Shown: positions 9,804 through 38,567 of the stretch, one piece after another
Numbering within the stretch: the first letter of the stretch is position 1
Layout of the letters: each line of letters opens with the position of its first letter
NCBI RefSeq assembly: GCF_017302975.1
Contig: NZ_JAFIMT010000003.1
DNA from: Corallococcus exiguus
GTDB lineage: Bacteria; Myxococcota; Myxococcia; Myxococcales; Myxococcaceae
Direction: 5' to 3' (one strand)
Length of the DNA: 64,000 nt
Notes under the pieces: generated by a model
What the model saw: the letters and a program-made list of their open reading frames with translations, nothing else
Databases searched by the model: none
What the model was told of the DNA's origin: nothing
Made by a program: the position numbers and the translations under genes

Positions 9804-10375
9804 GGGATGAAGTCCTTGCGCGTGAACAGCGTGGTGAGGCGGTGGCCGGCGGACTCCACGGCCTCGCGTCCGCCCTCCAGCCTGTCCACCAGCGCGAAGG
9901 CGCCCAGCACCGTCAGGCCCTCCAGCTTCGCGCGCTCAATCGCCTTGAGGGTGGACGCGCCCGTCGTCACCACGTCCTCCACGATGGCCACCGGGGCGCC
10001 GGGGCTCAGCGCGGACAGGCCTTCAATCCACTGGCCGGTGCCGTGGCCCTTGGGCTCCTTGCGCACGATGAACGCGTGCAGGGGCTTCTGGCCGCCGCCC
10101 TCCAGGAAGCTGGTCAGGCTCACCGCCGACGCGAGCGGATCCGCGCCCAGCGTCAGCCCGCCCGCGGCCACCGCCGACGGAGCGTCGCGCCGGATGGCCT
10201 CCAGCAGCAGCCGGCCGATGAGGTAGTGGCCCTCGGCGAGCAGCGCCGTGCGCTTGCAGTCGATGTAGAAGTCCGACTCCTTGCCGGAGGAGAGCACCAC
10301 GCGCCTGCGCTCGAAGGAGCGCTGCGTGAGCACCTCCAGGAGCCGGGCGCGGTCGCGTTCGAGCGTTTCCGCCAT
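9800..10375 (-). CDS. pyrE: Orotate phosphoribosyltransferase
   Basis: It has the PRPP-binding motif VAIVEDVVTTGAS and the length and composition typical of PyrE. Confidence 0.9.
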   Translation of the reverse strand: MAETLERDRARLLEVLTQRSFERRRVVLSSGKESDFYIDCKRTALLAEGHYLIGRLLLEAIRRDAPSAVAAGGLTLGADPLASAVSLTSFLEGGGQKPLHAFIVRKEPKGHGTGQWIEGLSALSPGAPVAIVEDVVTTGASTLKAIERAKLEGLTVLGAFALVDRLEGGREAVESAGHRLTTLFTRKDFIP

Positions 10376-24894: not shown

Positions 24895-26625
24895 CTAGCA
24901 GTCCACCGGGCCTTTCAGGCTGGTAACGGTGGCTTCGATTTCTTCACACCCGCCCAGGGTTTTCGCCCCGTGGGCCGCCAGCTTGATGCCCAGCACGTCC
25001 CCCACCACCACGTCCGCCGTGGAGCGAACCACGACGCCGTCCCGCTGGCGGAACGTCACCGCGTAGCCGCGAGACATCACCTTCAGGGGGCTCAGGGCGT
25101 CCAGGCGGCCCCCCAACCGTCCGAAGTGCGTCTGCGCGGTCGCCAGCATGCCCCGCTGCAGCTCCAGGAGCCGCGAGCGCGTCTGGGCCACCTTCGCCCG
25201 CTCGGCCGCCACCCGCGCCATGGGGGATTGCCGCTCCAGCCCCAGCCGCGCGTCCGCCAGCGCGCCCCGCCGACGGGTGACGCCCGCGCGCGCCGCCTCC
25301 GACAGGCGCATGGCCAGCTTGAGCAGGTGGGCCCGCTGCTCCGACAGCCGCGTCTGGGGCCGCGCCCGCTGCAGCCGCTCCTGCAAGGCGCGCAGCGTCT
25401 CGCGGTGCTCGCGCGCGCGAGGGCGCAGCACGCGCATCATCGCCTCCACCTGTTCGGACAGGTGCAGGCGCTGGTGGTTCACCTCGCGGCGCGGGTCCGG
25501 CAGCCGAGCGCGAAGCTGGCCCTGGCTCTGACGCAGCTCCAGCACCCGCCGCTCCATGGCCCGGCGCAACCGGCCGGACTGCGTGGCCAGCGTCAGCTCC
25601 AGGTCCGCCAGTACCGGCGCCAGCCGCTCCGCCGCCGCGCTGGGCGTGGGCGCGCGCAGGTCCGCGACGAAGTCCGAAATGGTGAAGTCGATTTCGTGGC
25701 CGATGGCGGACACCACCGGCACCGGCGAGGCGAAGATGGCGCGCGCCACCCGCTCCTCGTTGAACGTCCAGAGGTCCTCCACGGAGCCTCCGCCGCGCGT
25801 CACGACGATGACGTCCACGTCGGTGCGCGAAAGCCGCTCGATGGCCCGCGCCACGTCCTCCGCGGCGCCCTCGCCCTGCACGCGCGCGTCCGCCAGCAGC
25901 ACGCCCAGCCGGGGGTTGCGCGAGTGCAGCACGCGCAGGAAGTCCTGGAGCGCCGCGCCGGTGCGGCTGGTGACGACGCCAATCCGCCGGGGAAGGAACG
26001 GCACGGGCCGGGGCGGCCGCACGCGCCGGTCGCCGATGAGCCCCTCCGCGGCCAATCGCTGCTTGAGCTGCTCGAACGCGAGCGCCAGCGCGCCCTCGCC
26101 CACCGGCTCCAGCCGGGACACGATGAGGCTGTAGCGGCCCTGCGGCTCGTACAGGTCCACGCTGCCCTCGGCCACCACCTCCATGCCGTCGCGCAGCGCG
26201 AAGCGGATCCGCCCCGCCATGGACGCCCACACCTTCGCGTCGATGGAGGCGTCCGCGTCCTTGAGCGTGAAGTACCAGTGGCCGCGCGCGTTGGCGCCGC
26301 GGAAGCTGGACACCTCACCGCGCACCATCACGCGCGGGAAGCGCGTCTCCACCGTCTGTTTTATCTGCCGGGTGAGCTCGCCCACCGACAACACCGTGCG
26401 CTCCGGGCGCGGCGGCGGGGTGACGGCGGCGGGGGGCGGTGGGGCGACTTCAGCCACCGGCGCGGACGAATGAGCCGGGGGAGCCGGGGGGGCCGGAGGC
26501 GTCTTGCCTCCGCTGGCGGCCTTCGCGGGCGCGGGACGCAAGGGGGGTAGCAGCGACGTGCCGAACAGGTCGCCCTGCCCCGGCTCGTCGGCCGGGGGCG
26601 GCTCCAGCCCCTTGCGCTTCTTCAT
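24895..26625 (-). CDS. xseA: Exodeoxyribonuclease VII large subunit with an N-terminal Pro/Ala-rich extension
   Basis: It has an OB-fold followed by a catalytic core (GVVTSRTGAALQDFL...VIVVTRGGGSVEDLW), and about 75 aa of PAPPAPP-rich leader. Confidence 0.85.
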   Translation of the reverse strand: MKKRKGLEPPPADEPGQGDLFGTSLLPPLRPAPAKAASGGKTPPAPPAPPAHSSAPVAEVAPPPPAAVTPPPRPERTVLSVGELTRQIKQTVETRFPRVMVRGEVSSFRGANARGHWYFTLKDADASIDAKVWASMAGRIRFALRDGMEVVAEGSVDLYEPQGRYSLIVSRLEPVGEGALALAFEQLKQRLAAEGLIGDRRVRPPRPVPFLPRRIGVVTSRTGAALQDFLRVLHSRNPRLGVLLADARVQGEGAAEDVARAIERLSRTDVDVIVVTRGGGSVEDLWTFNEERVARAIFASPVPVVSAIGHEIDFTISDFVADLRAPTPSAAAERLAPVLADLELTLATQSGRLRRAMERRVLELRQSQGQLRARLPDPRREVNHQRLHLSEQVEAMMRVLRPRAREHRETLRALQERLQRARPQTRLSEQRAHLLKLAMRLSEAARAGVTRRRGALADARLGLERQSPMARVAAERAKVAQTRSRLLELQRGMLATAQTHFGRLGGRLDALSPLKVMSRGYAVTFRQRDGVVVRSTADVVVGDVLGIKLAAHGAKTLGGCEEIEATVTSLKGPVDC

Positions 26626-28370
26626 CGCGACAGCTTCTCGACCCAGCCCTGGGCCTTGCCGTGCAACTCGTCGTCAGGCGGCGTCATCGCGACGACGTCG
26701 CGGAACTTGGGCAGCGCGTCCTCCGGGCTGGAGTCCTTGATGGAGTAGGCCTGCATGTACAGGTCCTTCGCCTTGCCCTTGAGGTCGTTGACGATGTTGG
26801 CGGCGCCCGTGTGGCTGGGGTCGGCCTGGAGGGCGCGGCGGGCGAACTCCATGGCGCGCGACCACTGGCCGGCGGCCTTCGCGCCCGCGGCGCTCTTGTA
26901 ATAGATGTTGCCCGCGCGGGTTCCCGCGTTGCGCGCCATCTTGCTGGTGCGCCCGTCGGTGATTTCCTTGTCCAGCGAGAGCAGGCGGGTGAGGCCCTTG
27001 GCGTCCAGGTCCTCCAGCTTCTTGTAGAGGTTGCCGAACTCCGTCACCTGCGCCATCAGCTGCTTGCACTGGGGCGTCTTGGCCGAGCACGCGTTGAGGA
27101 TGGCCACCGCGCCGGTGATGTCCGCGTCGCGGAAGCGGTCCACCGCGGGCTCCCACGGCTTGGGCGTCGCGGCCACGCGCACGGGGTCCGGACGCGTCAG
27201 GTCCGCGATGACGCGCACGGCGTCGTCGTTGACCAGCTTGCCGTCGCGGTGCTCGGGGAAGGTCGCGAGCACGTCGTCGGTGATGGCCTTGGCCTTCTGC
27301 ACGTTCTCCAGCGAGCGGGTGTCCAGGAGCCCCTTGGCCTCCTTCGTGCGCTTGTCGGCGGCGTCCGTCAGGTTCTTGCGCGCCGTCTTCAGCTGCTCGT
27401 ACTGCTGGGTGTCGCTGGTCACCTTCTCGATGGACGCCTTCGCGCTGGCCAGCTCGCCCTTGTCCAGCGCCGCCTGGGCCGTGCTCAGGTGCTTCTGGTT
27501 GGGAATCTCCCGCTCCGCGGCCTTCAGGTAGTCCGCCACGCCAGGGTAGTCATCCGCCCGCGTGTGGAGCTCCTCCAGCTTCGCCTTGGCCTGCTCCCAC
27601 TGGCCTTCGCGCACCAGGTTCTTGGCCTCCTGGAAGAGCGCGCCCAGCTGCGCACGGTACTCGCGCTGCTCCGCCTCGATGCGGCCCTGCTCCTCCGCCT
27701 GCTGCCGCATGCGCGAGCGCGCGACGCCCAGGCCCGCGAAGAGCAGCACCAGCACGGCGACGCCCGCGAGCTTGATCCGCAGCCGCTTGCGCTGCGCTTC
27801 CGGAGTGAGCTCCGCGGCGGCGGCGGCGCGCGACGTCTGCGGGCGCGCGCGGCCCTCCCGGGCGGGACGCGTGGGCACGGCCGTGGGACCGCGGCCCGCC
27901 GCCGAGGACGGACGGGGCCGGGAGCCGGTGGGGGCCTGCACCTTCGCGGTGCTGTTGGCGGTGTCCTCGTAGCGCAGCTCCGAGTCGCCCAACGTGATGA
28001 CGTCGCCGTTGGCGAGGAGCGTCTCCTCGGAGATGGGCTCGCCGTTGAGGATGGTTCCGTTGCCGGAGCCCATGTCACTGACCATCCAGCCGGAGGACTC
28101 CTTGCGCAGCGTCACGTGCTTGCGGGAGACGGACGTGTCCTGGATGCAGATGGGGTTGTCAGCGGAGCGGCCGACCGTGTACTCGAGCTCGGAGAGCGCG
28201 AACTCCTCGCCCTCCATGGGGCCGGCGACGACGACGAGCTTCGCGGGGCGGGCCGCGGCGGCACCGGCGGTCGACCGGCGGACCGGCGCGCGCGAACCGC
28301 TCCCGGAGGAGGGCGTACCGGACGTAGGCCGTCGGCGGGCGGGGGGAGGTGCGTTCGACATGGAGGTCAC
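26622..28370 (-). CDS. FHA-domain membrane protein with a long coiled-coil/TPR-like periplasmic region (first gene of the Tad-like cluster)
   Basis: An N-terminal FHA domain (EYTVGRSADNPICIQDTSVSRKHVTL...SGNGTILNG) is followed by one TM helix (IKLAGVAVLVLLFAGLGV) and a helical repeat region. Confidence 0.75.
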   Translation of the reverse strand: MTSMSNAPPPARRRPTSGTPSSGSGSRAPVRRSTAGAAAARPAKLVVVAGPMEGEEFALSELEYTVGRSADNPICIQDTSVSRKHVTLRKESSGWMVSDMGSGNGTILNGEPISEETLLANGDVITLGDSELRYEDTANSTAKVQAPTGSRPRPSSAAGRGPTAVPTRPAREGRARPQTSRAAAAAELTPEAQRKRLRIKLAGVAVLVLLFAGLGVARSRMRQQAEEQGRIEAEQREYRAQLGALFQEAKNLVREGQWEQAKAKLEELHTRADDYPGVADYLKAAEREIPNQKHLSTAQAALDKGELASAKASIEKVTSDTQQYEQLKTARKNLTDAADKRTKEAKGLLDTRSLENVQKAKAITDDVLATFPEHRDGKLVNDDAVRVIADLTRPDPVRVAATPKPWEPAVDRFRDADITGAVAILNACSAKTPQCKQLMAQVTEFGNLYKKLEDLDAKGLTRLLSLDKEITDGRTSKMARNAGTRAGNIYYKSAAGAKAAGQWSRAMEFARRALQADPSHTGAANIVNDLKGKAKDLYMQAYSIKDSSPEDALPKFRDVVAMTPPDDELHGKAQGWVEKLSR

Positions 28371-28397: not shown

Positions 28398-31300
28398 CTA
28401 AAGCTCGTGCTCATAGGCTTTTTCCTGCGCGAGATTGTGGCAGCGATGCTCGGCCGTAGGGAAGCGTCTCCGTACGTCTTCCAGGGTCGCGACCGCATCC
28501 CGTCGGCTGCGGAACTGAACCGCCCGCTGGAACTGCATCATCAGTTGGCTGCAGCGGTGGTCCAGCTCCATTGAAATCTGGGCAATCCGCTCCCGGACGT
28601 CCTCGTAGAGCTCCGGCTTGTCGTCCAGCGCTTCCAGGGTGATCCACGCGGCGCGGTATTCCCGCCACGCCTTGAACAGGTTCTCCGCGCCCACATCCTT
28701 GAGTTCGTAGAAGCGGGCCCCCGCCGTCGCGGCCTCCCGGGCGGAGGTGACCAGCTGATCCGGCGGCGCCTCCGGCACCGGGATGATCTCCAGCCGCAGG
28801 TTCCAGATGCGCCACGGGTCGCGGCCGGGCGGGTTGAGGGCGTTGTCGAAGAGGATCTGGTTGTTGGCGTTGCGCCGCAGGAGGCTGGGCGGGAGGATCT
28901 GCTCCAGCTCACGCTCGGCCGTCTGCGCCGTGTCCGGGGGCACCCAGCCCAGGGAGACGCCGTTGAGGGACAGGTTGACCTCGTCCCGGGCGATGCTGCT
29001 GGCCTGGTAGTGCAGCACCGCCACGGCGCGCGTGGGGGACACGAAGCGGAAGTCGAAGAGCTTGTCGTCGGCGTGGACCCAGCGCACGCCGTCGCCCAGG
29101 CCGAAGGAGTCCGTCACCGGCTCCATGCCCAGCGTGAAGGGTTCGCGGCCCGGGAGCCGGATGGCCGTGGGGGCCGCGAGCGCCACGAGCAGCGTCACCA
29201 CGCCCAGCACGGCCACGCCCGCCAGCGACGCGATGGCGATCCGCTTGGGCAGCGACTGGCGCTTCCAGAAGAGGATGAACCGGCCCTGGAGCGACTTGCC
29301 CAGCTGACGCCGCTGGCGGGCCTTGTCGGCGGCGGACGAGGGCTCGACCTTCGCGACGACCGTCACCGGGCCGTTGGGCACGGGCTGGACGAAGGAGTCC
29401 TCCAGGTCGGCCGGCACGGGCTGGGTGGCATCCCCCTCCCCGTCCGCGGAGGGCACGGGGGCCAGTGGGAACTCGCCCGGCAGCGGGCCGGGGTCCAGGG
29501 TCGGGGCAGGCACGGCGCGGTCCCGGCCGACGAACGTCACCGGCTCCGGCGAAGGCGGCGGGACGGGAGGGCTCCAGGCCGGCGGAGGCGCCACGGGGGC
29601 GGGGGCAACCTGGCCCGTGAAGGTCCCCGAGGCCCGGGTCTCCTCGGGGGCCGCGAAGAGGTCATCGTCCTGGCCGACGAAGGTCGAGGGCTCGCTGGAG
29701 TCGGGCGCGGGGACGGGCACGCTCGCGACGCGCACCGGAGGGGCCACGAGCGGACTGACCGGGGTGATGGGCCGGAGGTCGAGAACGGTCCGCTCCTCGG
29801 GCTCCTCCATCATCGGCGGAGGCAGCGCGGGCGAGGCCGCCTGTGGCGGAGCCGACTCTTCCAGGGGCGGCGCTTCCGGGGTCGCCGGAATCGCCATCAG
29901 CGTGCGCTCCTCGGGCTCATCCAGCTCCGGGAACGGCAGCGCGGGGGGCGGCAACGCGGCGGGCTCGAGCGAGTTCACCGTGGAGATCGCCATCAGCGTG
30001 CGCTCCTCGGGCTCGTCCAGTTCCGGGAGGGGCAGCACGGGAGACAGCGCCGCGGCGGGTGCGTCCGCCGTGGGAATCGCCATCAGCGTGCGCTCCTCGG
30101 GTTCATCCGACACCACCGGGGCCAGGTCCACGGGAGGCGGAACGACGGAAGGCCGAGTCGGAGGCGGCGGAGCCATGAGCCCCGGCGGCGACATCAACGG
30201 CAGTCCGGATGAGGAAGCCGCGGCACTCCGGGCCGCGGGAGCAGCGGACGCGCGCGCGGCGCCAAGCCCCAGCGAGGGACGGTTCAGTGCGGGAGCACCG
30301 ATACCGGGCAGACTCGTGACGCCGTTCCGCTTCGCGGGAGCCGCTGGCTCCACGGGAGCTGGGGCCGCGACCCTCTCCGGCGCGGAGGTCACCGCCGGAA
30401 CAGCCCCGGTCAAGGCAGGAGTTCCGGCCGCGGGAAGCTCGAGCGCGGTGATGTGCGCGGGCTCGGGCGCGGACGACCGGCTCGGTCCCGAGGAACCGAC
30501 CGCGGACAGTCCAGGCCCGGAGGCCCGGACGGAGGCGGAAGGTCCCGGAGCCTTGTTCGCGGCCGGAGCGCTCAGCACCGGGGGGCCCCCAGGAGCCTGG
30601 GCTGGCGCACCCGAGCCCGAAGCGGCAGGCCCCAACACCGGGGGCCCCACGGGAGTCCTGGCGGGCGCGGTCGCTCCCGGCGCCGAAGGTCCCGACACAG
30701 GAGGCGCGCCGGGAACCTTGCCCGAAGCAGCCGACGCGGAGGCCCCCAACACAGGCGGACCCGAAGGAGGCCTGGGAGGAGTCACCGCACCCGGAGCGGA
30801 AGCCCCCGGCACAGGAGCTCCCGGTGCAGGCCGGGCCGGCGCAGCGGATGCCGGCGAGGAAGCTCCCACCACTGGAGCTCCCGGTGCAGGCCGAGCCGGC
30901 GTCGCCGCACCCGGCGCGGAAGCTCCCGACACAGGAACTCCCGGTGCAGGCCGAGCCGGCGCAGCGGATGCCGGCGCGGAAGATCCCAGCACGGGAGTTC
31001 CAGGTGCAGGCCGGGCCGGCGCAGCGGATGCCGGCGAGGCAGCTCCCGCCGCTGGAGTTCCAGGTGCAGGCCGGGCCGGCGCAGCGGATGCCGGCGAGGA
31101 AGCCCCCGGCACAGGAGGCCCGGCGGGAGGCTTGGGCGGAGCCGCCGCACCCGGCGCGGATGCGCTGAGCACAGGCCCCGGAGGAGGCCGGACCGGCGCG
31201 GGGGCACTGACCGCCGGCAGATCCGGAGCGGAGGGCCGCTTCGGTGTGGCGGCCGGCACCGGCATCGCAGGGGTCGCCCCACCCTTCGCCGCGGGCACCG

Positions 31301-31706
31301 CCATTCCCGGGCGCGGCGGAGATACTGGCCGGGCCATGGCCGGCATCGACTGCTGGTAGCTCGTGGGCGCCGCTTCGATTTCCGCGAGCGAGGCCTGCCC
31401 CAAGCCCTGCGGCGACACGTTCGCGTGGGGCGGCGCGAGCACCCGCCGGATGGGCCGGGTGACGTCGTCGTCATCCTCCGGCGGCATCCACACGAAGGTG
31501 AACTCCACCGGCCCCACGGTGATGCGGTCGCCGTCGCGCAGCTGCTTCTCGCCAGCCAGCGGCTGGCCGTTCAGCTGCGTGCCGTTCGCGCTGCCAACGT
31601 CCGCCGCGAAGTAGCGCCCATCCCTCGCCGTGATGCGGGCATGACGCCGGGAGACACCGTGGTCATGCAGCACCAGGTCGTTCTCCGAGGTCCGGCCGAT
31701 CTTCAC
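28398..31706 (-). CDS. Giant FHA-domain protein (1102 aa) with a TM helix and an extensive Pro/Ala/Gly/Ser low-complexity region containing 20-aa tandem repeats
   Basis: The FHA core reads GRTSENDLVLHDHGVSRRHARI...GSANGTQLNG. There is a single TM helix (IAIASLAGVAVLGVVTLLVALAA) and a C-terminal globular part. The first canonical start (GTG 31706) truncates FHA strand 1, and the upstream in-frame sequence has no ATG, GTG or TTG. Confidence 0.75.
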   Translation of the reverse strand: MKIGRTSENDLVLHDHGVSRRHARITARDGRYFAADVGSANGTQLNGQPLAGEKQLRDGDRITVGPVEFTFVWMPPEDDDDVTRPIRRVLAPPHANVSPQGLGQASLAEIEAAPTSYQQSMPAMARPVSPPRPGMAVPAAKGGATPAMPVPAATPKRPSAPDLPAVSAPAPVRPPPGPVLSASAPGAAAPPKPPAGPPVPGASSPASAAPARPAPGTPAAGAASPASAAPARPAPGTPVLGSSAPASAAPARPAPGVPVSGASAPGAATPARPAPGAPVVGASSPASAAPARPAPGAPVPGASAPGAVTPPRPPSGPPVLGASASAASGKVPGAPPVSGPSAPGATAPARTPVGPPVLGPAASGSGAPAQAPGGPPVLSAPAANKAPGPSASVRASGPGLSAVGSSGPSRSSAPEPAHITALELPAAGTPALTGAVPAVTSAPERVAAPAPVEPAAPAKRNGVTSLPGIGAPALNRPSLGLGAARASAAPAARSAAASSSGLPLMSPPGLMAPPPPTRPSVVPPPVDLAPVVSDEPEERTLMAIPTADAPAAALSPVLPLPELDEPEERTLMAISTVNSLEPAALPPPALPFPELDEPEERTLMAIPATPEAPPLEESAPPQAASPALPPPMMEEPEERTVLDLRPITPVSPLVAPPVRVASVPVPAPDSSEPSTFVGQDDDLFAAPEETRASGTFTGQVAPAPVAPPPAWSPPVPPPSPEPVTFVGRDRAVPAPTLDPGPLPGEFPLAPVPSADGEGDATQPVPADLEDSFVQPVPNGPVTVVAKVEPSSAADKARQRRQLGKSLQGRFILFWKRQSLPKRIAIASLAGVAVLGVVTLLVALAAPTAIRLPGREPFTLGMEPVTDSFGLGDGVRWVHADDKLFDFRFVSPTRAVAVLHYQASSIARDEVNLSLNGVSLGWVPPDTAQTAERELEQILPPSLLRRNANNQILFDNALNPPGRDPWRIWNLRLEIIPVPEAPPDQLVTSAREAATAGARFYELKDVGAENLFKAWREYRAAWITLEALDDKPELYEDVRERIAQISMELDHRCSQLMMQFQRAVQFRSRRDAVATLEDVRRRFPTAEHRCHNLAQEKAYEHEL
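30780..31180 (-). repeat. About six tandem copies of a 60-bp coding repeat inside the giant FHA gene
   Basis: Near-identical units gcaggccgggccggcgcagcggatgccggcgaggaagctcccaccactggagctcccggt encode a repeated roughly 20-aa PASAAPARPAPG(A/T)PV(x)GASS motif. Confidence 0.6.
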
Positions 31707-31779: not shown

Positions 31780-32670
31780 CTAGCCCCCGACGTTGCCGAA
31801 CATGAACTGGAACACGATGGGCCCGAAGAGCACCATGAACACCGTCGGGAAGATGCAGGCGATGAGCGGGAAGAGCATCTTCACCGGCGCCTCGCCCGCC
31901 AGCTTCTCCGCGCGCTGCGTGCGGTCGATGCGCATCTGCGTGGACTGGATGCGCAGCACCTTGCCCAGGCTCGTACCCATCTTGTCCGCCTGGATCAGCG
32001 CCGTGACGAACGTCGTCAGCGACGGCAGGTCCACGCGCACGATCATGCTCTTGAGCCCCTCTTCACGCGTCTTGCCCATCTTGAGCTGCTTGAGCACCAG
32101 CTGCAGCTCCTCGCGCAGCGGACCCTGGCGGCCCTTCTCCACCACCTTCGCCAGCGCGCCCGTGAAGTCCATGCCCGCTTCCACCGACAGCGTCAGCAGG
32201 TCCAGGTTGTACGGAAGCGCGCGGCTGATGGCCAGGTGACGGCGCTTCACCTGATCGTTCAACCAGATGAGCGGATAGAACAGGCCCAGCAGCATCACCA
32301 GCAGCGACCAGGCCAGGTTCATGCCCATGCCGTTGACGACGAACAGGCCGGCCAGCAGCGCCAGGAAGGCGCTGATCTCCTGCAGCGCCATGATGTCCTC
32401 GGGCTTGTACTGCGACGGCTCGCCCGCCTTGATCAGCTTGCGGCGCGTCTTGGACTCGTAGCCCGGCCACATGAAGCGCCGGTTCATCGCGCCCAGCTTG
32501 CGGACGGCGACGGAGCCAGCGCCCTTCATGCCGCCCGCGGACTCGTCCCGGACTTCCGTGAGGAAGCGCTCCAGGAGGTTGGAGTACAGGCCGATGCCCA
32601 GGAACGCCACCGCGCCCGCGGTCAGCAGTGCCGAGCCGCCCATCAGCAGAAATGTCAGGACTTCCTGCAC
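31780..32670 (-). CDS. tadC: Tad/Flp pilus assembly inner-membrane platform protein TadC (T2SS-F family)
   Basis: It has the T2SSF domain and TM topology (LALLAGLFVVNGMGM..., LFPLIACIFPTVFMVLFGPIV). It is paired with TadB immediately upstream. Confidence 0.8.
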   Translation of the reverse strand: MQEVLTFLLMGGSALLTAGAVAFLGIGLYSNLLERFLTEVRDESAGGMKGAGSVAVRKLGAMNRRFMWPGYESKTRRKLIKAGEPSQYKPEDIMALQEISAFLALLAGLFVVNGMGMNLAWSLLVMLLGLFYPLIWLNDQVKRRHLAISRALPYNLDLLTLSVEAGMDFTGALAKVVEKGRQGPLREELQLVLKQLKMGKTREEGLKSMIVRVDLPSLTTFVTALIQADKMGTSLGKVLRIQSTQMRIDRTQRAEKLAGEAPVKMLFPLIACIFPTVFMVLFGPIVFQFMFGNVGG

Positions 32671-32683
32671 GGTGCGCCTCGTT

Positions 32684-33529
32684 TCAGATGTCGATGTTGA
32701 CGATGCGCCGGATGATGAGGATGCCCATGATCTCCATGATGGCGATCAGGGTCACCAGGATGTAGCCGAAGATGTGGTTCATCATCGGCTCCATCAGGTC
32801 CGGGCGCATGTAGTTGAGCACCATGCCCAGCACCGCCGGCATGGCCGCGACGATCCACCCCTGCAGCTTGCCCTGGGAGGTCAGCGCGTCGATCTTGCCT
32901 TCCAGACGGAAGCGCTCGCGGATCACCGTGGAGATGGTCTCGAACATCTCCGCCATGTTGCCGCCCAGCTGGCGCGCGATGTTCGTGGACACGACCACCA
33001 GCTCCAGGTCGTCGCTGCCCACGCGCTTGCCCATGTTGACGAGCGCCTCTTCCAGCGGCACGCCCAGCTTCACTTCCTTCACGAAGAGGCCGAACTCCTG
33101 GGACAGGGGCGGCATCGCTTCGCGAGCCACGTGCTCGATGGCCTGGGGGAACGTGAGACCCGCCTTGAACGCGTTGGCCATGGCCTGCAGCGCGTCCACC
33201 AGCTGCACGTTGAACTTCTTGATGCGGCGCTTGCGGTAGTGCTTCACGAGCAGCATCGGCAGGAAGAAGCCGAAGATGGTCGCGAGCACCGCAAGGATGG
33301 GGTTGAAGACGATGTAGCTGAGGATGCCCAGGAGGCACATGCAGGCGATGTTGAGGATCAACATCTGCCGCGCATCGATGAAGAGGAACATGTCGCTCAA
33401 GTCGTTCATCGACTTGGCGACGTACCGCTCCTGGTACTGCTCATACGCCTTTGACAGGACGCTGAAGATCACCAGGCTGAAGAAGAACACCGAGCCGGTG
33501 ACGAGAAGGAGGACGATACCTGCGAGCAT
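32684..33529 (-). CDS. tadB: Tad/Flp pilus assembly inner-membrane platform protein TadB (T2SS-F family)
   Basis: It has T2SSF-family topology and is the platform paralogue of the downstream TadC. Confidence 0.8.
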   Translation of the reverse strand: MLAGIVLLLVTGSVFFFSLVIFSVLSKAYEQYQERYVAKSMNDLSDMFLFIDARQMLILNIACMCLLGILSYIVFNPILAVLATIFGFFLPMLLVKHYRKRRIKKFNVQLVDALQAMANAFKAGLTFPQAIEHVAREAMPPLSQEFGLFVKEVKLGVPLEEALVNMGKRVGSDDLELVVVSTNIARQLGGNMAEMFETISTVIRERFRLEGKIDALTSQGKLQGWIVAAMPAVLGMVLNYMRPDLMEPMMNHIFGYILVTLIAIMEIMGILIIRRIVNIDI

Positions 33530-33607: not shown

Positions 33608-34426
33608 CTACGGAGAGCCGGCCGAGGCCTTCTCGCCGCCGCCACTGCCCTTGATGATCTGGATGATCTCCCGGCGCTTCTGCTCCAGCACGCGGGTGCG
33701 CTCACCGGAGAGCAGCGTGCTGATGGTCGCGCGGCCACGCTCCTCGATGAGGTCCACGTCGTCCTCGTTGCGCAGGGACAACGTCAGCTGGCCCAGTTCC
33801 GCCGCCAGCACCAGGATCTCCGCCTCTTCCGGCAGCACCATCAGCGAGACGTTGGAGTACTCGCGCTGGTTCTCCGGGATGAGGTTGATGTTCGTGGTGC
33901 CGGTGATCTTGCCCGTGGCGACCACGATGATGTTCTGCAGCAGCGTCACCGCGACGCTCTCGTCCGTCTGCGGATCGCGGAACGTGCCGATGATGTCCAC
34001 GTGATCGTTGGGGCGGATCCACCCGCCCACGGACGTGGTCTGCTTCGCCTCGATGGTGATGGCGCGCGCCTTCTTCTGCACCTTCGTGGACAGGCGCTCG
34101 GCGGCCTTCGTCGTCTCGAACTGGCTCCAGAGGATGGGGTCGCCGGCCTGCAGCGCCACCAGCACCTTCTGGTTCACGATGTAGTTGGCGGAGTCCGGCT
34201 TCACCACCGACGAGGTGACGAACTGCTCCGGCACGGAGCGCTGGGAGATCATCTCGTACGTGATGACCGAGCCCTCGGGCATGTCCTGGCCCGCCACCAC
34301 CACGGGCACCAGGTTCCACCCGCGGCGCACATCGGATTCCTTCTTCTTGATGGCCGAGTAGGCCACGATGCCCGCGAGCAAACCGAGCACCAGTGCGACG
34401 ACGAGTGGGGTCTTACCCTTCAACAT
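33608..34426 (-). CDS. cpaB: Flp pilus assembly protein CpaB/RcpC (SAF domain)
   Basis: It has an N-terminal TM anchor and a SAF/CpaB-like beta-rich periplasmic domain; its length and position match CpaB. Confidence 0.8.
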   Translation of the reverse strand: MLKGKTPLVVALVLGLLAGIVAYSAIKKKESDVRRGWNLVPVVVAGQDMPEGSVITYEMISQRSVPEQFVTSSVVKPDSANYIVNQKVLVALQAGDPILWSQFETTKAAERLSTKVQKKARAITIEAKQTTSVGGWIRPNDHVDIIGTFRDPQTDESVAVTLLQNIIVVATGKITGTTNINLIPENQREYSNVSLMVLPEEAEILVLAAELGQLTLSLRNEDDVDLIEERGRATISTLLSGERTRVLEQKRREIIQIIKGSGGGEKASAGSP

Positions 34427-34658
34427 GGTTCAAAGTCCTCCAGAACGGTGGGGCGCCGTCGTGGCGGCAGGACTGCTTTGGACGAGGGGGCGATGCCAGG
34501 GCGCGAACGAGGCAAGATGTTAGCCATGCCCCAGAGCAGGTGTCAAAACCACCTCTCGTGACAAAGCGGAATCCCGGGACCTCCGGAGCTCGCGGAGCCT
34601 GTCCGCCCAGGGGGGAGGACGGCTCGACGCAGTGAGTTGATCCGCGGACTGCCGTCCC

Positions 34659-34961
34659 TCAGGGGAACGGCAGGTTCAGCACGAAGTAGAACGAGTCGTA
34701 ATAGATCTGGTACGCCTCGAGGAACAGGTCGATGACGTTGGTCTGCCGGTCGTCCGTCCAGCGGATCTTCACCGTGGCGCCGACGACGAGCCCGACGATC
34801 AACACCCAGTTGATCATCGAGTACTCCACCATGGCCTGGCCACGGCGGGCCCGGCGCGGGGAGCGCGGCGGCGACTTCCGGGGGCTGTTCACGGGGGGAG
34901 CGTGCACGTCCGACGTCATGTCCCCATTATCCAGGACCCGGGCCCCGGACGCATCGGTCAT
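34659..34961 (-). CDS. Candidate Flp/TadE-type prepilin with an unusually long basic leader
   Basis: It contains a G/XXXXEY-type processing motif (RRGQAMVEY) followed by a hydrophobic helix SMINWVLIVGLVVG. The mature part would be about 58 aa. A stem-loop lies just after the stop. Confidence 0.5.
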   Translation of the reverse strand: MTDASGARVLDNGDMTSDVHAPPVNSPRKSPPRSPRRARRGQAMVEYSMINWVLIVGLVVGATVKIRWTDDRQTNVIDLFLEAYQIYYDSFYFVLNLPFP

Positions 34962-34979
34962 GTGGACTGCCGCCCTCCC

Positions 34980-36431
34980 CTACTGCGCGCGCTGGGCTGG
35001 CGCGGCCCTGTCCGTGTCCGCGGAGGGCGTGACCTGACGCAGGCGGCGCTGGGCCAGCTGCGCCGCGCTGGAGCCGGGGGCCTCGGTGATGATCTGCCCG
35101 CAGATGGCGGCGGCCTCCTGGGTCCGTCCCTGGACGGACTCCGACTCGCAGAGCCGTGAGAGCAGGGCCAGCCGCTCGCTGCCGCTGGCTCCAGCCGCGA
35201 GCGCGGCGCGCAGCAGCTGTGCCTCCCGGGCGCGGTCCCCCTGGTTCGCGGCGGCCTGGGCCTGGGCGGACAGGTCGCGCGCAGTCATCGCCTCCTTGGA
35301 GACGGACTTCTCCATGGACGCAGGCTTCGCGGGCTCCGCGCGGGCGGACTCCTGCTTGGGCTTGGCGTTCGAAAGCCCCGGGGGCGTGGACGGAGGCATC
35401 GCACCGCCGATGGAGCCCACGGCGGAGGGGGCCATGGGCGCGGCCTGGACCACAGGCGCGGAGGCCACGGCGGGAGGCGGCGGAGCCGCGCCCGCTGCCA
35501 CCTCGTCGTCCCCATCCGAGATGAGCCCACGGCCATAGGCCGTCTCACCCATCCGCAGGGAATCGCCCTTCGAGCCCGGGGCCTTGTCGCTGAGTTTGCC
35601 CGCGGAACGCCGCGGCGCGGACTCATCCTTCGCGAGGTAGCCGTCGAGGGCCTGCTCTTCCCTCGGAGGCGGCTCCATCAAGGGTGCCCCGGCCGTCGCC
35701 TGTTCGAGCGCGGCGAACTCTTCCTCCGCGTCCCGGACGGCCTTGGACATCTTCTTCTTGGGAGCCTCGGCGTTCGCGCGGCGCTCCAGCAGCCCGCCAC
35801 CACTGCCCGCGTTCATCCAGTCGGACGGACGGGCCGCGGCGGTGCCCTTGCGCTGCGCCTTGGCCTCCATCTGGTTCCGGTTGATCTCCATCTCGCCCGG
35901 CGCGGGCGCGGCCGCCAGTGCGTCCGAGGCACCCTCGGGCACGTCCACTTCCATGGTCGCGCTTGACGGCGCGGGGGCCACGGCGCTCGGGGCGCTCTTT
36001 TCCCGCGTCTGGGATTCCTGCTTCGCCGCCACCATCGCCGGGCTGGGGGCGCGCTGAGACAGGTTCGGCGACAGGTCCAGGTTCTCGCTCACCGTCAACG
36101 TCAGGACGCCGAAGGTGCCCACCGTTGCCAGGCCCACCGCGGGCAGCAGGAAGCGGCGCCAGCGCGAGGGCTTCGGCTCGGGGCCGGCGGCGGCGCGGCG
36201 CGCGGACTGCTGCGCGTACGCGAGCAGCGACTCCAGGCCCGCGTCCGGCGCGGGCTCCGACGACAGCTGCGCCATGGTCGTGCGCACGCCGCGGATGTCC
36301 GCCAGCGCCTTCGTGCAGCGCGCACAGCCCTGGACGTGCTGCTCCAGCACATGGGCCTCCGACGCGGGCAGTTCGCCGTAGGCGAAGTCGAGGAGCCGGT
36401 CCTCGTGCGCGTGGGCATTCTGGGCATTCAT
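34980..36431 (-). CDS. Membrane anti-sigma factor (zinc-finger type) with a Pro/Ala-rich periplasmic region
   Basis: It has an N-terminal HxxxCxxC anti-sigma motif (HVQGCARCTKAL) and one TM helix. Its start overlaps the stop of the upstream ECF sigma gene (ATGA). Confidence 0.7.
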   Translation of the reverse strand: MNAQNAHAHEDRLLDFAYGELPASEAHVLEQHVQGCARCTKALADIRGVRTTMAQLSSEPAPDAGLESLLAYAQQSARRAAAGPEPKPSRWRRFLLPAVGLATVGTFGVLTLTVSENLDLSPNLSQRAPSPAMVAAKQESQTREKSAPSAVAPAPSSATMEVDVPEGASDALAAAPAPGEMEINRNQMEAKAQRKGTAAARPSDWMNAGSGGGLLERRANAEAPKKKMSKAVRDAEEEFAALEQATAGAPLMEPPPREEQALDGYLAKDESAPRRSAGKLSDKAPGSKGDSLRMGETAYGRGLISDGDDEVAAGAAPPPPAVASAPVVQAAPMAPSAVGSIGGAMPPSTPPGLSNAKPKQESARAEPAKPASMEKSVSKEAMTARDLSAQAQAAANQGDRAREAQLLRAALAAGASGSERLALLSRLCESESVQGRTQEAAAICGQIITEAPGSSAAQLAQRRLRQVTPSADTDRAAPAQRAQ

Positions 36432-37075
36432 CCCGCCACCGTCCTTCCATCCTCCGACAGGTCGCCGTCCACGCCCAGCTCACCCAGGCGGCGGCGCAGG
36501 CCCTCCAACGCGTAGCGCATGCGGCTCTTCACCGTGTTCTCGGACACGCCCGTCACCTCGGCGATCTCCTTGAACGGGATGCCGCTGTACTCGCGCAACA
36601 CGAACACCTCGCGCTGCTCCTCCGGCAGGGCGGACAGGGCCCGCTCCAGCAGGGGCCGGAGGCGGGCGTTGTGCGCGCCGCGCTCCGGGCTGGCCCCGGC
36701 ATCCGGCAGCCCCTCGCCCAGCGGACGTCCCTCGTCGCCGTCGGCACCCGCCGAGGGGGCTTCCAGGGACGTCGTCTGGCGGTAGCTCTCTTTGCGCGTG
36801 CTGTCCACGCAGAGGTTCCTCGCGATGGTGTACAGCCAGGTCGTGAACCGGGCCTTGGGCTCGTATTCCCGGGCGCTGCGGACCACCTTGAGCCAGGTCT
36901 CCTGCAGCACGTCCTCCGCCCGCGCCCTATGGCCTACGAAGCGCAGGATGAAGTTGAACACCGGCGCGCGGTGCTTGCGCACCAACGCATCGAACGCACG
37001 CGCGTTTCCCGCCTGGAAGGCGAGCATCAGCTGCTCGTCTGAGGTTTCGGGTGCCAAACTTCCCCCAGTGCCCAT
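36428..37075 (-). CDS. ECF (sigma-70 family) RNA polymerase sigma factor
   Basis: It has region 2 (LQETWLKVVR...FTTWLYTIARN) and region 4 (EQREVFVLREYSGIPFKEIAEVTGVSENTVKSRMRYA). The start is uncertain (37075, 37027 or 37108). Confidence 0.8.
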   Translation of the reverse strand: MGTGGSLAPETSDEQLMLAFQAGNARAFDALVRKHRAPVFNFILRFVGHRARAEDVLQETWLKVVRSAREYEPKARFTTWLYTIARNLCVDSTRKESYRQTTSLEAPSAGADGDEGRPLGEGLPDAGASPERGAHNARLRPLLERALSALPEEQREVFVLREYSGIPFKEIAEVTGVSENTVKSRMRYALEGLRRRLGELGVDGDLSEDGRTVAG

Positions 37076-37139
37076 GAAGCCACGGGTGCCATCCCCTTCA
37101 CCGCCCACGGCCTGTAACGGACAGCCGTGCGCGAAAGGT

Positions 37140-37553
37140 CTATTCCGGCCGTGGCCGCCGGTAAGTGGCGAGAATGACAGGGACCGCCACCCCTGTCACC
37201 AGAAGTGCCTGCGCAAGTAATACCGCCGGCAGCGGGCGCTGCACATGCACGTACAGCGAGCGGCCGAGCCCCACTCCCAACAGGATGCCCGTCAGCGTAC
37301 GTACCGCGTTGGAACCCGAGGCGGGCCGGAAGCGTCCCACCGCCCAGTCCACGAGCGCGGGCAGCGTGAGTCCCAGCACCACCGGCACGTCCCACTCCCA
37401 CTGGAGCGGCGCCTTCAGCGCGAACAGCGCGAGGAACACGCCCGCGAGCACCGGGTACGTACCCAGGCACCGCGCGCACACGCGCACGCCCGCGAGCACG
37501 TACGTGCGGTTGTACTCATCCGGGTGATGATGGCTGAGCCAGAACACCGGCAC
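37140..37553 (-). CDS. DUF2085-family membrane protein
   Basis: It has [10 protein letters not shown]...[10 protein letters not shown] (a Cys-rich DUF2085 signature) followed by TM helices. The start was trimmed to avoid a 170-nt overlap with the upstream ABC ATPase. Confidence 0.55.
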
Positions 37554-38567
37554 CTCCTCCGGACGTGGAAACAGCGGGCCCGTCCTGCACGTCGCGCGAA
37601 TCCCCTTCGGCCAGGAAGCAAGCCGCGGCGTGGCCTCCGCCCAGGGGATACAGCGGCGGTGACTCGCGGCGGCAGCGCTCCATCGCATGCGGGCAGCGCG
37701 GATGGAACGCGCAACCGGTCGGCGGCGACAGGGGCGAAGGCGGCTCTCCCGGCAGCAGCAGCCGCGCGCGGGGACGCTCCGGATCCGGCACCGGCACCGC
37801 GGACAGCAGCGCCTGCGTGTACGGATGGCGAGGCCCGGCGTACAGCGCCCGGGACGGCGCCACCTCCACGATGCGGCCCAGGTACATCACCGCCACGCGC
37901 GTCGACACGTACTCCACAATCTTCAGGTCGTGCGCGATGAAGACGTAGGTGAGCCCGCGCTCGCGCTGCAGGTCCACCAGCAGGTTGACGATCTGCGCCT
38001 GGATGGAGACGTCCAGCGCGCTGATGGGCTCATCCGCCACCACCAGCTCCGGACGCAACGCGATGGCACGTGCAATGCCGATGCGTTGACGCTGGCCGCC
38101 GGAGAACTCGTGCGGGTAGCGCTGGCGCGCCTCGCGGGGCAACCCCATGGCGTCGAGCAGCGCCAGCACCTCGTCGTCGCGCGCCTTGCCCTTCGCGAGG
38201 CCGTGGATGGCGAAGGGCTCCGCGAGGATGTCCCCCACCGTCATGCGCGGGTTGAGCGACGCGTACGGATCCTGGAAGACGAGCTGCATCTGGCGGCGCA
38301 GCGGCCGTAATTCGCGCTGCGACAGGCCGGTCAGCTCGCGCCCCGCCACGCGGATGGAGCCGGAGGTCGGGTCGATGAGCCGCAGCACCGCACGCCCCAG
38401 GGTGCTCTTGCCGCAGCCACTCTCCCCTACCAGGCCCAGCGTCTCCCCACGGGCGACATCGAAGGACACGCCGTCCACCGCGCGCACCGTGCCGCGCGTG
38501 CGCCCCAACAAGCCGCCCTTCACCGGGAAGTGCACCTTCAGGTCGCGCACCTGGACCAGCGGTTCGC

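Follow-up and report, generated by a model that had tools for sequence, protein, structure and literature searches.

A probable ortholog of the Flp-like adapter pilin KilK at a reduced kil cluster II locus of Corallococcus

The stretch of DNA considered here, called the window in what follows, comprises 64,000 nucleotides of Corallococcus exiguus (contig NZ_JAFIMT010000003.1, assembly GCF_017302975.1) and shares 94% nucleotide identity with Corallococcus coralloides KYC2213 across approximately 15 kb. Its minus strand specifies, in order, a DUF2085 protein, an extracytoplasmic function (ECF) sigma factor, a zf-HC2 anti-sigma factor, a small protein which is our main subject, a CpaB homolog, two T2SSF proteins, an FHA protein, an FHA-TPR protein and XseA (Table 1). 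This gene order is colinear with kil cluster II of Myxococcus xanthus (MXAN_4648–4661); Kil of M. xanthus is a Tad-like apparatus for contact-dependent prey killing (PMC8460266). The small protein, encoded by a 100-codon open reading frame (ORF) plus stop, is very probably the Corallococcus ortholog of KilK (MXAN_4655), a small Flp-like type IVc prepilin and the adapter pilin of the Kil machine.

The translation of the long ORF is MTDASGARVLDNGDMTSDVHAPPVNSPRKSPPRSPRRARRG/QAMVEYSMINWVLIVGLVVGATVKIRWTDDRQTNVIDLFLEAYQIYYDSFYFVLNLPFP, the bar marking the predicted cleavage point. It contains RRG/QAMVEY (G41, E46, Y47) followed by a hydrophobic stretch of some 20 residues, SMINWVLIVGLVVGATV, as a reading of this DNA made from the sequence alone (the sequence-only reading) had reported. 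That reading placed the mature peptide at roughly 58 residues; the cleavage motif stands, and the length after G41 is 59. A six-frame scan of the window found this ORF to be the sole candidate with a prepilin motif plus hydrophobic tail. The G+C content at third codon positions (GC3) of the frame is 0.93, and its surroundings are of tad type, with homologs of CpaB and of TadB/TadC at the same locus.

Identity with KilK was established through the M. xanthus kil cluster II locus (L001), where the 75-aa homolog of the window ORF (P0042) lies at 10001–10228 between genes for 269-aa and 248-aa products, which is the position of MXAN_4655. The kilK deletion primers published in 2021 map to L001 9976–9998 and 10229–10248 and bracket exactly P0042, and the 2025 deletion primer AACCACCCGAAGACGCTGCGT/GTGCTGAACCTGCCGTTCCCG encodes NHPKTLR/VLNLPFP, that is, both of its ends. 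Since the published primers excise exactly P0042, and the window ORF matches P0042, the window ORF is the KilK ortholog. The two are 71% identical over the whole alignment, and tblastn with M. xanthus KilK gave a single match in the window (34662–34841, 77% identity, residues 41–100). Synteny with kil cluster II is also kept (anti-sigma ... kilK ... kilB-kilG-kilH-FHA-FHA/TPR). A KilK C-terminus of ...PGKQ, deduced from the 2021 primer, was considered and rejected, the PGKQ-coding sequence being 3′ of the stop codon on L001. KilK is an already characterised protein, and the pilin itself is not new. Databases nevertheless call it a "hypothetical protein" and give it at least four different start codons; its annotation as KilK can now be regarded as settled, and its product should not be taken for a fibre subunit or for a new class of pilin.

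There are 265 homologs among 5.8 billion proteins, from the Myxococcaceae and Archangiaceae (Corallococcus, with the closest at 91–98% identity, Myxococcus, Pyxidicoccus, Hyalangium and Archangium), and they always sit in kil loci. Alignments of 84 close (A2) and 87 distant (A3) members showed G41, Q42 and E46 to be invariant and Y47 to be either invariant or at least 90% conserved, the ORF and its Gly/Glu-Tyr motif being kept throughout. The C-terminal LNLPFP motif is invariant among the close homologs, and the distant members retain an N-terminal RGQAMVEY(S/A) and a C-terminal Y.DS.Y.VLNLPFP. The mature part of kilK is under strong purifying selection. The invariance of G/XXXXEY, the place of the gene in the locus and orthology with KilK bear the protein out as an Flp-like (type IVc) prepilin of the adjoining Tad-like machine, as the sequence-only reading had proposed.

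What such a protein would do is known best from M. xanthus. Seef et al. (2021) listed KilK as a pilin/major pilin, and its deletion only partly cut killing (PMC8460266). According to Herrou et al. (2025), the fibre is formed by KilP (mxan_5121, 97 aa), a major pilin that is essential, and KilK and KilO are Flp minor pilins of low expression which serve as adapters: Tip1, Tip2 and Tip4 depend on KilK and Tip3 on KilO, and a double mutant is devoid of the KilP pilus (PMC12075869). Both groups of authors call KilK an Flp pilin (PMC8460266, PMC12075869). A Tip1-only strain of M. xanthus needs KilK but not KilA (PMC12075869), and therefore KilK would appear able to work without KilA; in Supplementary Data 1 of the same paper, the C. 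coralloides KilA ortholog lies about 80 genes from kilB (PMC12075869).

By analogy, the Corallococcus prepilin would be inserted in the inner membrane via its hydrophobic alpha1N helix, and a prepilin peptidase would cut after Gly41, leaving Q-A-M-V-E(+5)-Y(+6) at the new N-terminus. One or a few copies of the 59-aa mature KilK may then be built in at the distal end of the pilus, where they would join the KilP fibre to a heterotrimeric Tip of minor pilins (KilL/M/N) and help to prime polymerisation by the KilB/G/H/F machine. KilK would presumably not be the bulk fibre subunit.

Table 1. Genes and sequence features of the kilK region in the window (aa, amino acids; nt, nucleotides; CDS, coding sequence)
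Feature	Position	Strand	Basis
Longest ORF, kilK ortholog	34659..34961	-	ORF list; 265 homologs; tblastn with M. xanthus KilK
Best-supported kilK CDS, GTG-24 to stop, 77 aa, 18-aa leader MNSPRKSPPRSPRRARRG	34659..34892	-	GTG alignment; family length; substitution pattern
Alternative start ATG, codon 15, 86 aa, 27-aa leader	34917..34919	-	conserved box; 86-aa models P0006–P0008, P0010
Predicted prepilin-peptidase motif G41/Q-A-M-V-E46-Y47	34821..34841	-	conservation in A2/A3; hhalign to KilM4 N-termini
Predicted mature N-terminal hydrophobic helix alpha1N, residues 42–64	34770..34838	-	sequence; AlphaFold2 helix, pLDDT 76–88 there
Family-specific C-terminal motif YYDSFYFVLNLPFP	34662..34703	-	nearly all positions invariant, 84 homologs
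10-bp hairpin, TGA stop in loop	34649..34673	-	fold; no terminator call; chance frequency; weak conservation
Putative sigma-70-like kilB promoter TTGACA-N18-TAACAT	34517..34546	-	promoter scan, 10/12 matches vs 0.1 expected
Box TGACCGATGC-N17-19-GGATAAT-N6-ATG, promoter/5′ leader-like, non-coding	34917..34960	-	shared across loci; no coding periodicity
DUF2085 protein	37140–37688	-	Pfam/NCBIfam scans
ECF sigma factor	36428–37108	-	Pfam and NCBIfam matches; synteny with M. xanthus
zf-HC2 anti-sigma factor, MXAN_4661 homolog	34980–36431	-	Pfam/NCBIfam; ends 18 nt upstream of long ORF
kilB (CpaB/RcpC)	33608..34426	-	TIGR03177 E 4e-56, PF16976; 90% identity to MXAN_4652
kilG, TadB/TadC-type T2SSF platform protein	32684–33529	-	PF00482; 95% identity to MXAN_4651
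kilH, TadB/TadC-type T2SSF platform protein	31780–32670	-	PF00482; 82% identity to MXAN_4650
FHA protein, MXAN_4649 ortholog	28398–31706	-	Pfam/NCBIfam scans
FHA-TPR protein	26622–28370	-	Pfam/NCBIfam scans

All 16 proteins of M. xanthus cluster II, used as tblastn queries, showed the related loci to have two types of layout. Myxococcus, Pyxidicoccus, Archangium, Cystobacter and others have the full layout (anti-sigma-kilM4-kilN4-kilL4-4657-4656-kilK-4654-4653-kilB). The window has a minimal layout, anti-sigma-kilK-kilB, as do all Corallococcus-type loci (L004–L015) and nine loci from metagenome-assembled genomes (MAGs) of uncultured Myxococcota (L049, L060, L067, L074, L075, L077, L079, L080 and L082). 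Compared with L001 4029–12025, window positions 34427–34980 are devoid of kilM4, kilN4 and kilL4 (the Tip4 genes) and of homologs of mxan_4653, 4654, 4656 and 4657. Since a sequence box found in front of kilM4 elsewhere survives before kilK (see below), and full loci occur in sister and outgroup genera, these comparisons indicate that the Tip4 genes and four accessory genes were deleted from the locus in the Corallococcus lineage. From published models named COCOR_*, Tip triplets would seem to exist at other places in the C. coralloides genome. The Corallococcus kil cluster II can be seen as a natural minimal variant in which kilK was kept, which is a modestly new point, and comparative studies of the dispensability of Kil accessory genes and of the regulation of pilin genes could take the minimal locus and the relic box as a guide.

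Some database entries deserve a remark in this connection. In BNCN01000007.1 (L026), which bears the title 'Comamonas sp. KCTC 72670', a kil cluster II of Myxococcus type is present in full, its core Kil and Tip4 proteins being 88–99% identical to those of M. xanthus; this is probably a mislabelled or contaminated assembly. Two assemblies named Corallococcus terminator differ, BB12-2 (L029) having the full locus and CA054A (L014) the minimal one; the KilK C-terminal and downstream sequence of L029 is identical to that of a Myxococcus species (L030), which suggests a taxonomic misassignment.

Several observations weigh against regarding the window protein as an adapter pilin. Neither the full nor the mature protein matched any Pfam family, Flp_Fap and TadE included, even at E≤10, and NCBIfam gave no match even at E≤1. 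A profile of the 84 homologs found nothing among PDB sequences beyond a spurious match to a beta-xylosidase (E=2), and a Foldseek comparison of the AlphaFold2 model with the PDB returned nothing, the model being small, of low confidence and uninformative. That model shows a disordered leader, a helix at residues 35–63, a short beta-hairpin and a helix at 76–95; its confidence is moderate only (mean predicted local distance difference test, pLDDT, 65.6; predicted template modelling score, pTM, 0.32). Furthermore, kilK occupies the slot beside cpaB where canonical tad loci hold the major flp gene, and the Tip4 genes which flank it in M. xanthus are missing from the Corallococcus locus, so that the set of KilK partners may differ in Corallococcus. 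Each of the three candidate start codons discussed below is unusable in one of 13 aligned sequences (M1 in L011, M15 in L008 and V24 in L015). For Corallococcus KilK we infer the processing, the adapter role and the start codon, the adapter role having been shown in M. xanthus alone.

The family was also compared at the level of profiles. The sequence-only reading had looked to models of Flp_Fap and TadE for recognition of the protein; direct searches failed, but comparison of profile with profile revealed a shared N-terminal segment. Against the N-termini of TadE-positive KilM4 proteins hhalign aligned 23 columns (75% probability, E 2.4e-5), which represent the cleavage motif plus the start of alpha1N. 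The Pfam families with more than one match among the 87 distant members were TadE (8), DUF4244 (7), Class_IIIsignal (7) and Flp_Fap (4, best E 0.015), all of them weak. A hidden Markov model (HMM) search of 1.84 billion cluster representatives recovered only 118 proteins at E≤1e-3. The kilK product falls outside PF04964 (Flp_Fap) as defined by its profile, and outside TadE/TadF (PF07811), having neither a profile match nor a globular domain. Judged by these alignments, KilK is a distinct small family, with the class-III signal and alpha1N module as all that it has in common with Flp and TadE.

The sequence-only reading drew attention to a leader of about 42 residues, atypically long for an Flp pilin. 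A leader of 41 residues is most likely an artefact of taking the longest ORF, and the leader is probably shorter. Most homologs have 74–78 aa and more than 90% of the family 74–86 aa; only the Corallococcus models have 82–100 aa, and these use at least four different starts. When the window was aligned with 12 Corallococcus-type loci (13 sequences), the pairwise substitution rates at the first, second and third codon positions were 0.171, 0.208 and 0.180 for codons 1–14, 0.168, 0.148 and 0.108 for codons 15–23, 0.098, 0.091 and 0.138 for codons 24–41, and 0.079, 0.034 and 0.099 for codons 42–100. A substitution pattern of coding type is seen only from codon 24 on, with none in codons 1–23. In the alignment, M. 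xanthus kilK has its GTG start opposite the GTG-AAC at codon 24, and ATG-15 is positionally homologous to the kilM4 start codon of Myxococcus and Pyxidicoccus. Translation is likely to start either at GTG-24 (18-residue leader) or at ATG-15 (27 residues), and the product would be of 77 or 86 aa, respectively, as against 100 aa from ATG-1. In L015 the only in-frame starts left are ATG-15 and the distal M1 ATG.

Codons 1–15 of the long ORF are overlapped by a box which we consider to resemble a promoter or 5′ leader. It is present in the window, in 11 of the 12 aligned Corallococcus-type loci (all but L009) and in 11 Myxococcus/Pyxidicoccus-type loci; in the latter it is intergenic, with N6-8 spacing, and ends at the start codon of kilM4 (L001 4084–4128). 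A –10-like GATAAT lies 6–8 nt before the ATG across the loci. In the window it lies 6 nt before ATG-15, and therefore a leaderless transcript would fit. Leaderless mRNAs have been proposed in myxobacteria (PMC12754779); our search of the literature on transcription start sites and leaderless mRNAs in M. xanthus yielded an indirect mention only. The box was also compared with known promoter classes. A canonical sigma-70 promoter was rejected on the 24–26-nt spacing between TTGACC/ATGACC and GATAAT, and a sigma-54 promoter because the spacing of the two blocks does not fit. The box might be the target of the adjoining ECF sigma factor.

One might suppose that the deletion of Tip4 and the four accessory genes put kilK behind the box that drives kilM4, in Corallococcus and independently in several uncultured Myxococcota, so that a leaderless or nearly leaderless mRNA beginning at what was once the kilM4 ATG would yield KilK with a chimeric leader of 27 aa, its expression, and possibly its role, being altered. 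We regard this combined proposal as tentative and rather unlikely. If true, expression of KilK would differ from that in M. xanthus, the pilin being, for example, more abundant or under ECF sigma/anti-sigma control. The apparent long leader may be read as a relic of the regulatory box upstream of a lost operon, which again is a modestly new point.

A genuine Arg/Pro-rich leader of 41 aa, with translation starting at the distal ATG (34961), is the least likely of the three starts and in our opinion distinctly unlikely. All 13 Corallococcus-type sequences possess the distal ATG, which in the C. coralloides group is preceded by a GGAGG-like motif at a distance of 12 nt; the frame is kept open, the observed indels being multiples of three, and some database models have 97–100 aa. 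However, long open frames occur by chance in a genome of 70% GC, the family is of the lengths noted above, and codons 1–14 and 15–23 lack the coding periodicity evident in the mature part. The segment ATGACCGATGC, moreover, is part of the box, which reads TTGACCGATGC in M. xanthus and is intergenic there. Finally, in Corallococcus sp. CA053C (L011, 4492–4510) the fifth codon of the long version is an in-frame TGA. This TGA may be real or an assembly error (19x coverage); if it is real, the distal ATG is excluded as a start in L011.

A GC-rich stem-loop had been described immediately after the stop codon and credited with tuning pilin stoichiometry. The 10-bp stem exists (CUGCCGUUCC-CCUGA-GGGACGGCAG), but its 5′ arm is formed by the last four codons (LPFP) and the UGA is in its loop, so that it does not follow the stop. 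That the hairpin is a functional terminator or attenuator which sets the ratio of kilK to kilB expression is very unlikely. A stable 10-bp stem at the end of a gene (–17.9 kcal/mol for a 40-nt segment), followed by a 232-nt gap and then kilB, is admittedly suggestive, and partial versions occur in the closest relatives and in Pyxidicoccus. But no U-tract follows the hairpin, the terminator scan was empty, and it does not qualify as an intrinsic (Rho-independent) terminator. Stems of at least 10 bp with 3–8-nt loops number 26 on the plus and 40 on the minus strand of the window, as compared with 19–35 in Markov simulations, which we take as a frequency expected by chance. The invariant LPFP codons hold the 5′ arm constant, while there is free variation in the 3′ arm; part of the latter persists in the C. 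coralloides group, and C. sicarius, C. praedator, C. terminator and others have lost it. In the RNAalifold consensus of the 13 Corallococcus-type spacers the stop hairpin is absent (covariation term –0.28), and the equivalent bases of M. xanthus fall inside the overlapping next gene.

A tuning role for the hairpin is further undercut by kilB having its own putative promoter, which would be enough to uncouple expression. It is kept in 20 of 21 loci (L001 and 19 others among them) of both architectures and whatever the gene upstream, in the form TTGACAC-N17/18-TAnCAT, 64–147 nt upstream of kilB. Conservation in 20 of 21 loci implies that kilB-kilG-kilH may be regarded as a transcription unit of its own, and as a predicted element the promoter is a simpler basis than the hairpin for differing levels of kilK and kilB.

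Other RNA features of the region were few. No Rfam family was found between 34300 and 35100, and folding of the whole kilK–kilB spacer was not significant (z = –1.48). A second hairpin, GAGCCGUCC...GGACAGGCUC, lies at approximately 34580–34610 on the minus strand, between kilK and the kilB promoter; one of its pairs is changed on both sides in 4 of the 13 sequences (GAGCC/GGCTC versus GCGCC/GGCGC), its overall covariation being negligible.

The sequence-only reading also suggested that this could be the fibre subunit of the Tad-like machine, which was the 2021 view of KilK as well. We consider it highly improbable. A small Flp-like G/XXXXEY protein beside cpaB/kilB does occupy the usual place of flp/pilA, it is the sole pilin gene left at the locus in Corallococcus and several MAGs, and KilK was annotated as the major pilin by Seef et al. 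(2021). In M. xanthus, however, deletion of kilK gives a partial defect whereas deletion of kilP abolishes predation, and it is labelled KilP that makes up the visible fibre; kilK is transcribed at a very low level and its product behaves as an adapter (PMC12075869). A major pilin would be essential alone, highly expressed and fibre-forming, and M. xanthus KilK is none of these (PMC12075869). C. coralloides retains a KilP ortholog (E 9e-48, gene index 2247 as compared with 4611 for kilB), according to Supplementary Data 1 (PMC12075869). Mature KilK is 70–80% identical between genera, which argues for the same role, and Corallococcus KilK is probably not the fibre subunit.

It is barely conceivable that the ORF is spurious, or that it specifies some ordinary membrane-anchored small protein with no relation to pilins, since the failure to match Pfam, NCBIfam, PDB sequences or Foldseek structures is set against the purifying selection and high GC3, 265 homologs confined to kil loci, a Gly(–1), Glu(+5) and Tyr(+6) that are invariant or nearly so, the weak matches of distant members to TadE, DUF4244, Class_IIIsignal and Flp_Fap, the hhalign alignment with TadE-type N-termini, and the genetic evidence for the M. 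xanthus ortholog.

Among the neighboring genes, the MXAN_4649 ortholog is 1102 aa long here versus 484 aa in M. xanthus. The extra length is a Pro/Ala-rich linker of approximately 600 aa in which ...SAAPARPAPG... is tandemly repeated about six times and ELDEPEERTLMAI three to four times; the GC content of the region reaches 80%. A few kb upstream of the kil genes lie two adjoining genes for stand-alone MshEN proteins (PF05157; 39596–40609 and 40619–41368, minus strand), one of which has long poly-Pro tracts. MshEN is the cyclic di-GMP-binding N-domain of ATPases of type II secretion systems and type IV pili.

Of the known systems the closest is KilK (MXAN_4655) itself. The window gene has the orthologous place between the anti-sigma gene and kilB, 71–77% identity, an identical G/QAM(V/L)EY motif and an identical C-terminus, YYDSFYFVLNLPFP, and would specify 77 aa versus 75 if started at the homologous GTG. 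Unlike its M. xanthus counterpart, the Corallococcus gene is outside a kilM4-kilN4-kilL4-4657-4656-kilK-4654-4653 operon, the other seven genes being absent; it lies directly 3′ of the box that precedes kilM4 in Myxococcus, and may extend upstream in frame by 9 or 23 codons.

Two further Flp-like proteins belong to the Kil system. KilP (mxan_5121) is likewise a small alpha-helical Flp-like prepilin with a G/XXXXE motif and is assembled by the same machine, but it is encoded at a distant locus, has 97 aa, and is highly expressed, essential and fibre-forming. The window ORF differs from it in C-terminus and length and is not its ortholog. KilO (mxan_1150) is, like KilK, a short Flp-like adapter, and is redundant with KilK in priming KilP polymerisation. 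It differs in having 59 aa, in belonging to the tip3 cluster, in being specific for Tip3, and in ending, by its primer sequence, in ...SVIQAPI rather than LNLPFP.

Like canonical Flp/Fap pilins (PF04964), such as Aggregatibacter Flp1 and Caulobacter PilA, the kilK product has a basic leader, then G/XXXXEY and a hydrophobic alpha1N, is encoded beside homologs of cpaB/rcpC and tadB/tadC, and is probably a short prepilin. For an Flp prepilin some 50–80 aa and a wholly helical fold would be expected; the candidate starts give 77, 86 or 100 aa, and the AlphaFold2 model has a short beta-hairpin between its two helices. In contrast to the canonical pilins, the kilK product has no PF04964 match, it possesses a Tyr-rich C-terminal motif of its own, and its ortholog is an adapter and not a fibre. 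The TadE/TadF pseudopilins (PF07811; KilM/KilL) have the same N-terminal class-III signal and start of alpha1N, but are proteins of 150–400 aa with a globular beta domain, whereas the mature kilK product is predicted by modelling to be a helical hairpin of 59 aa.

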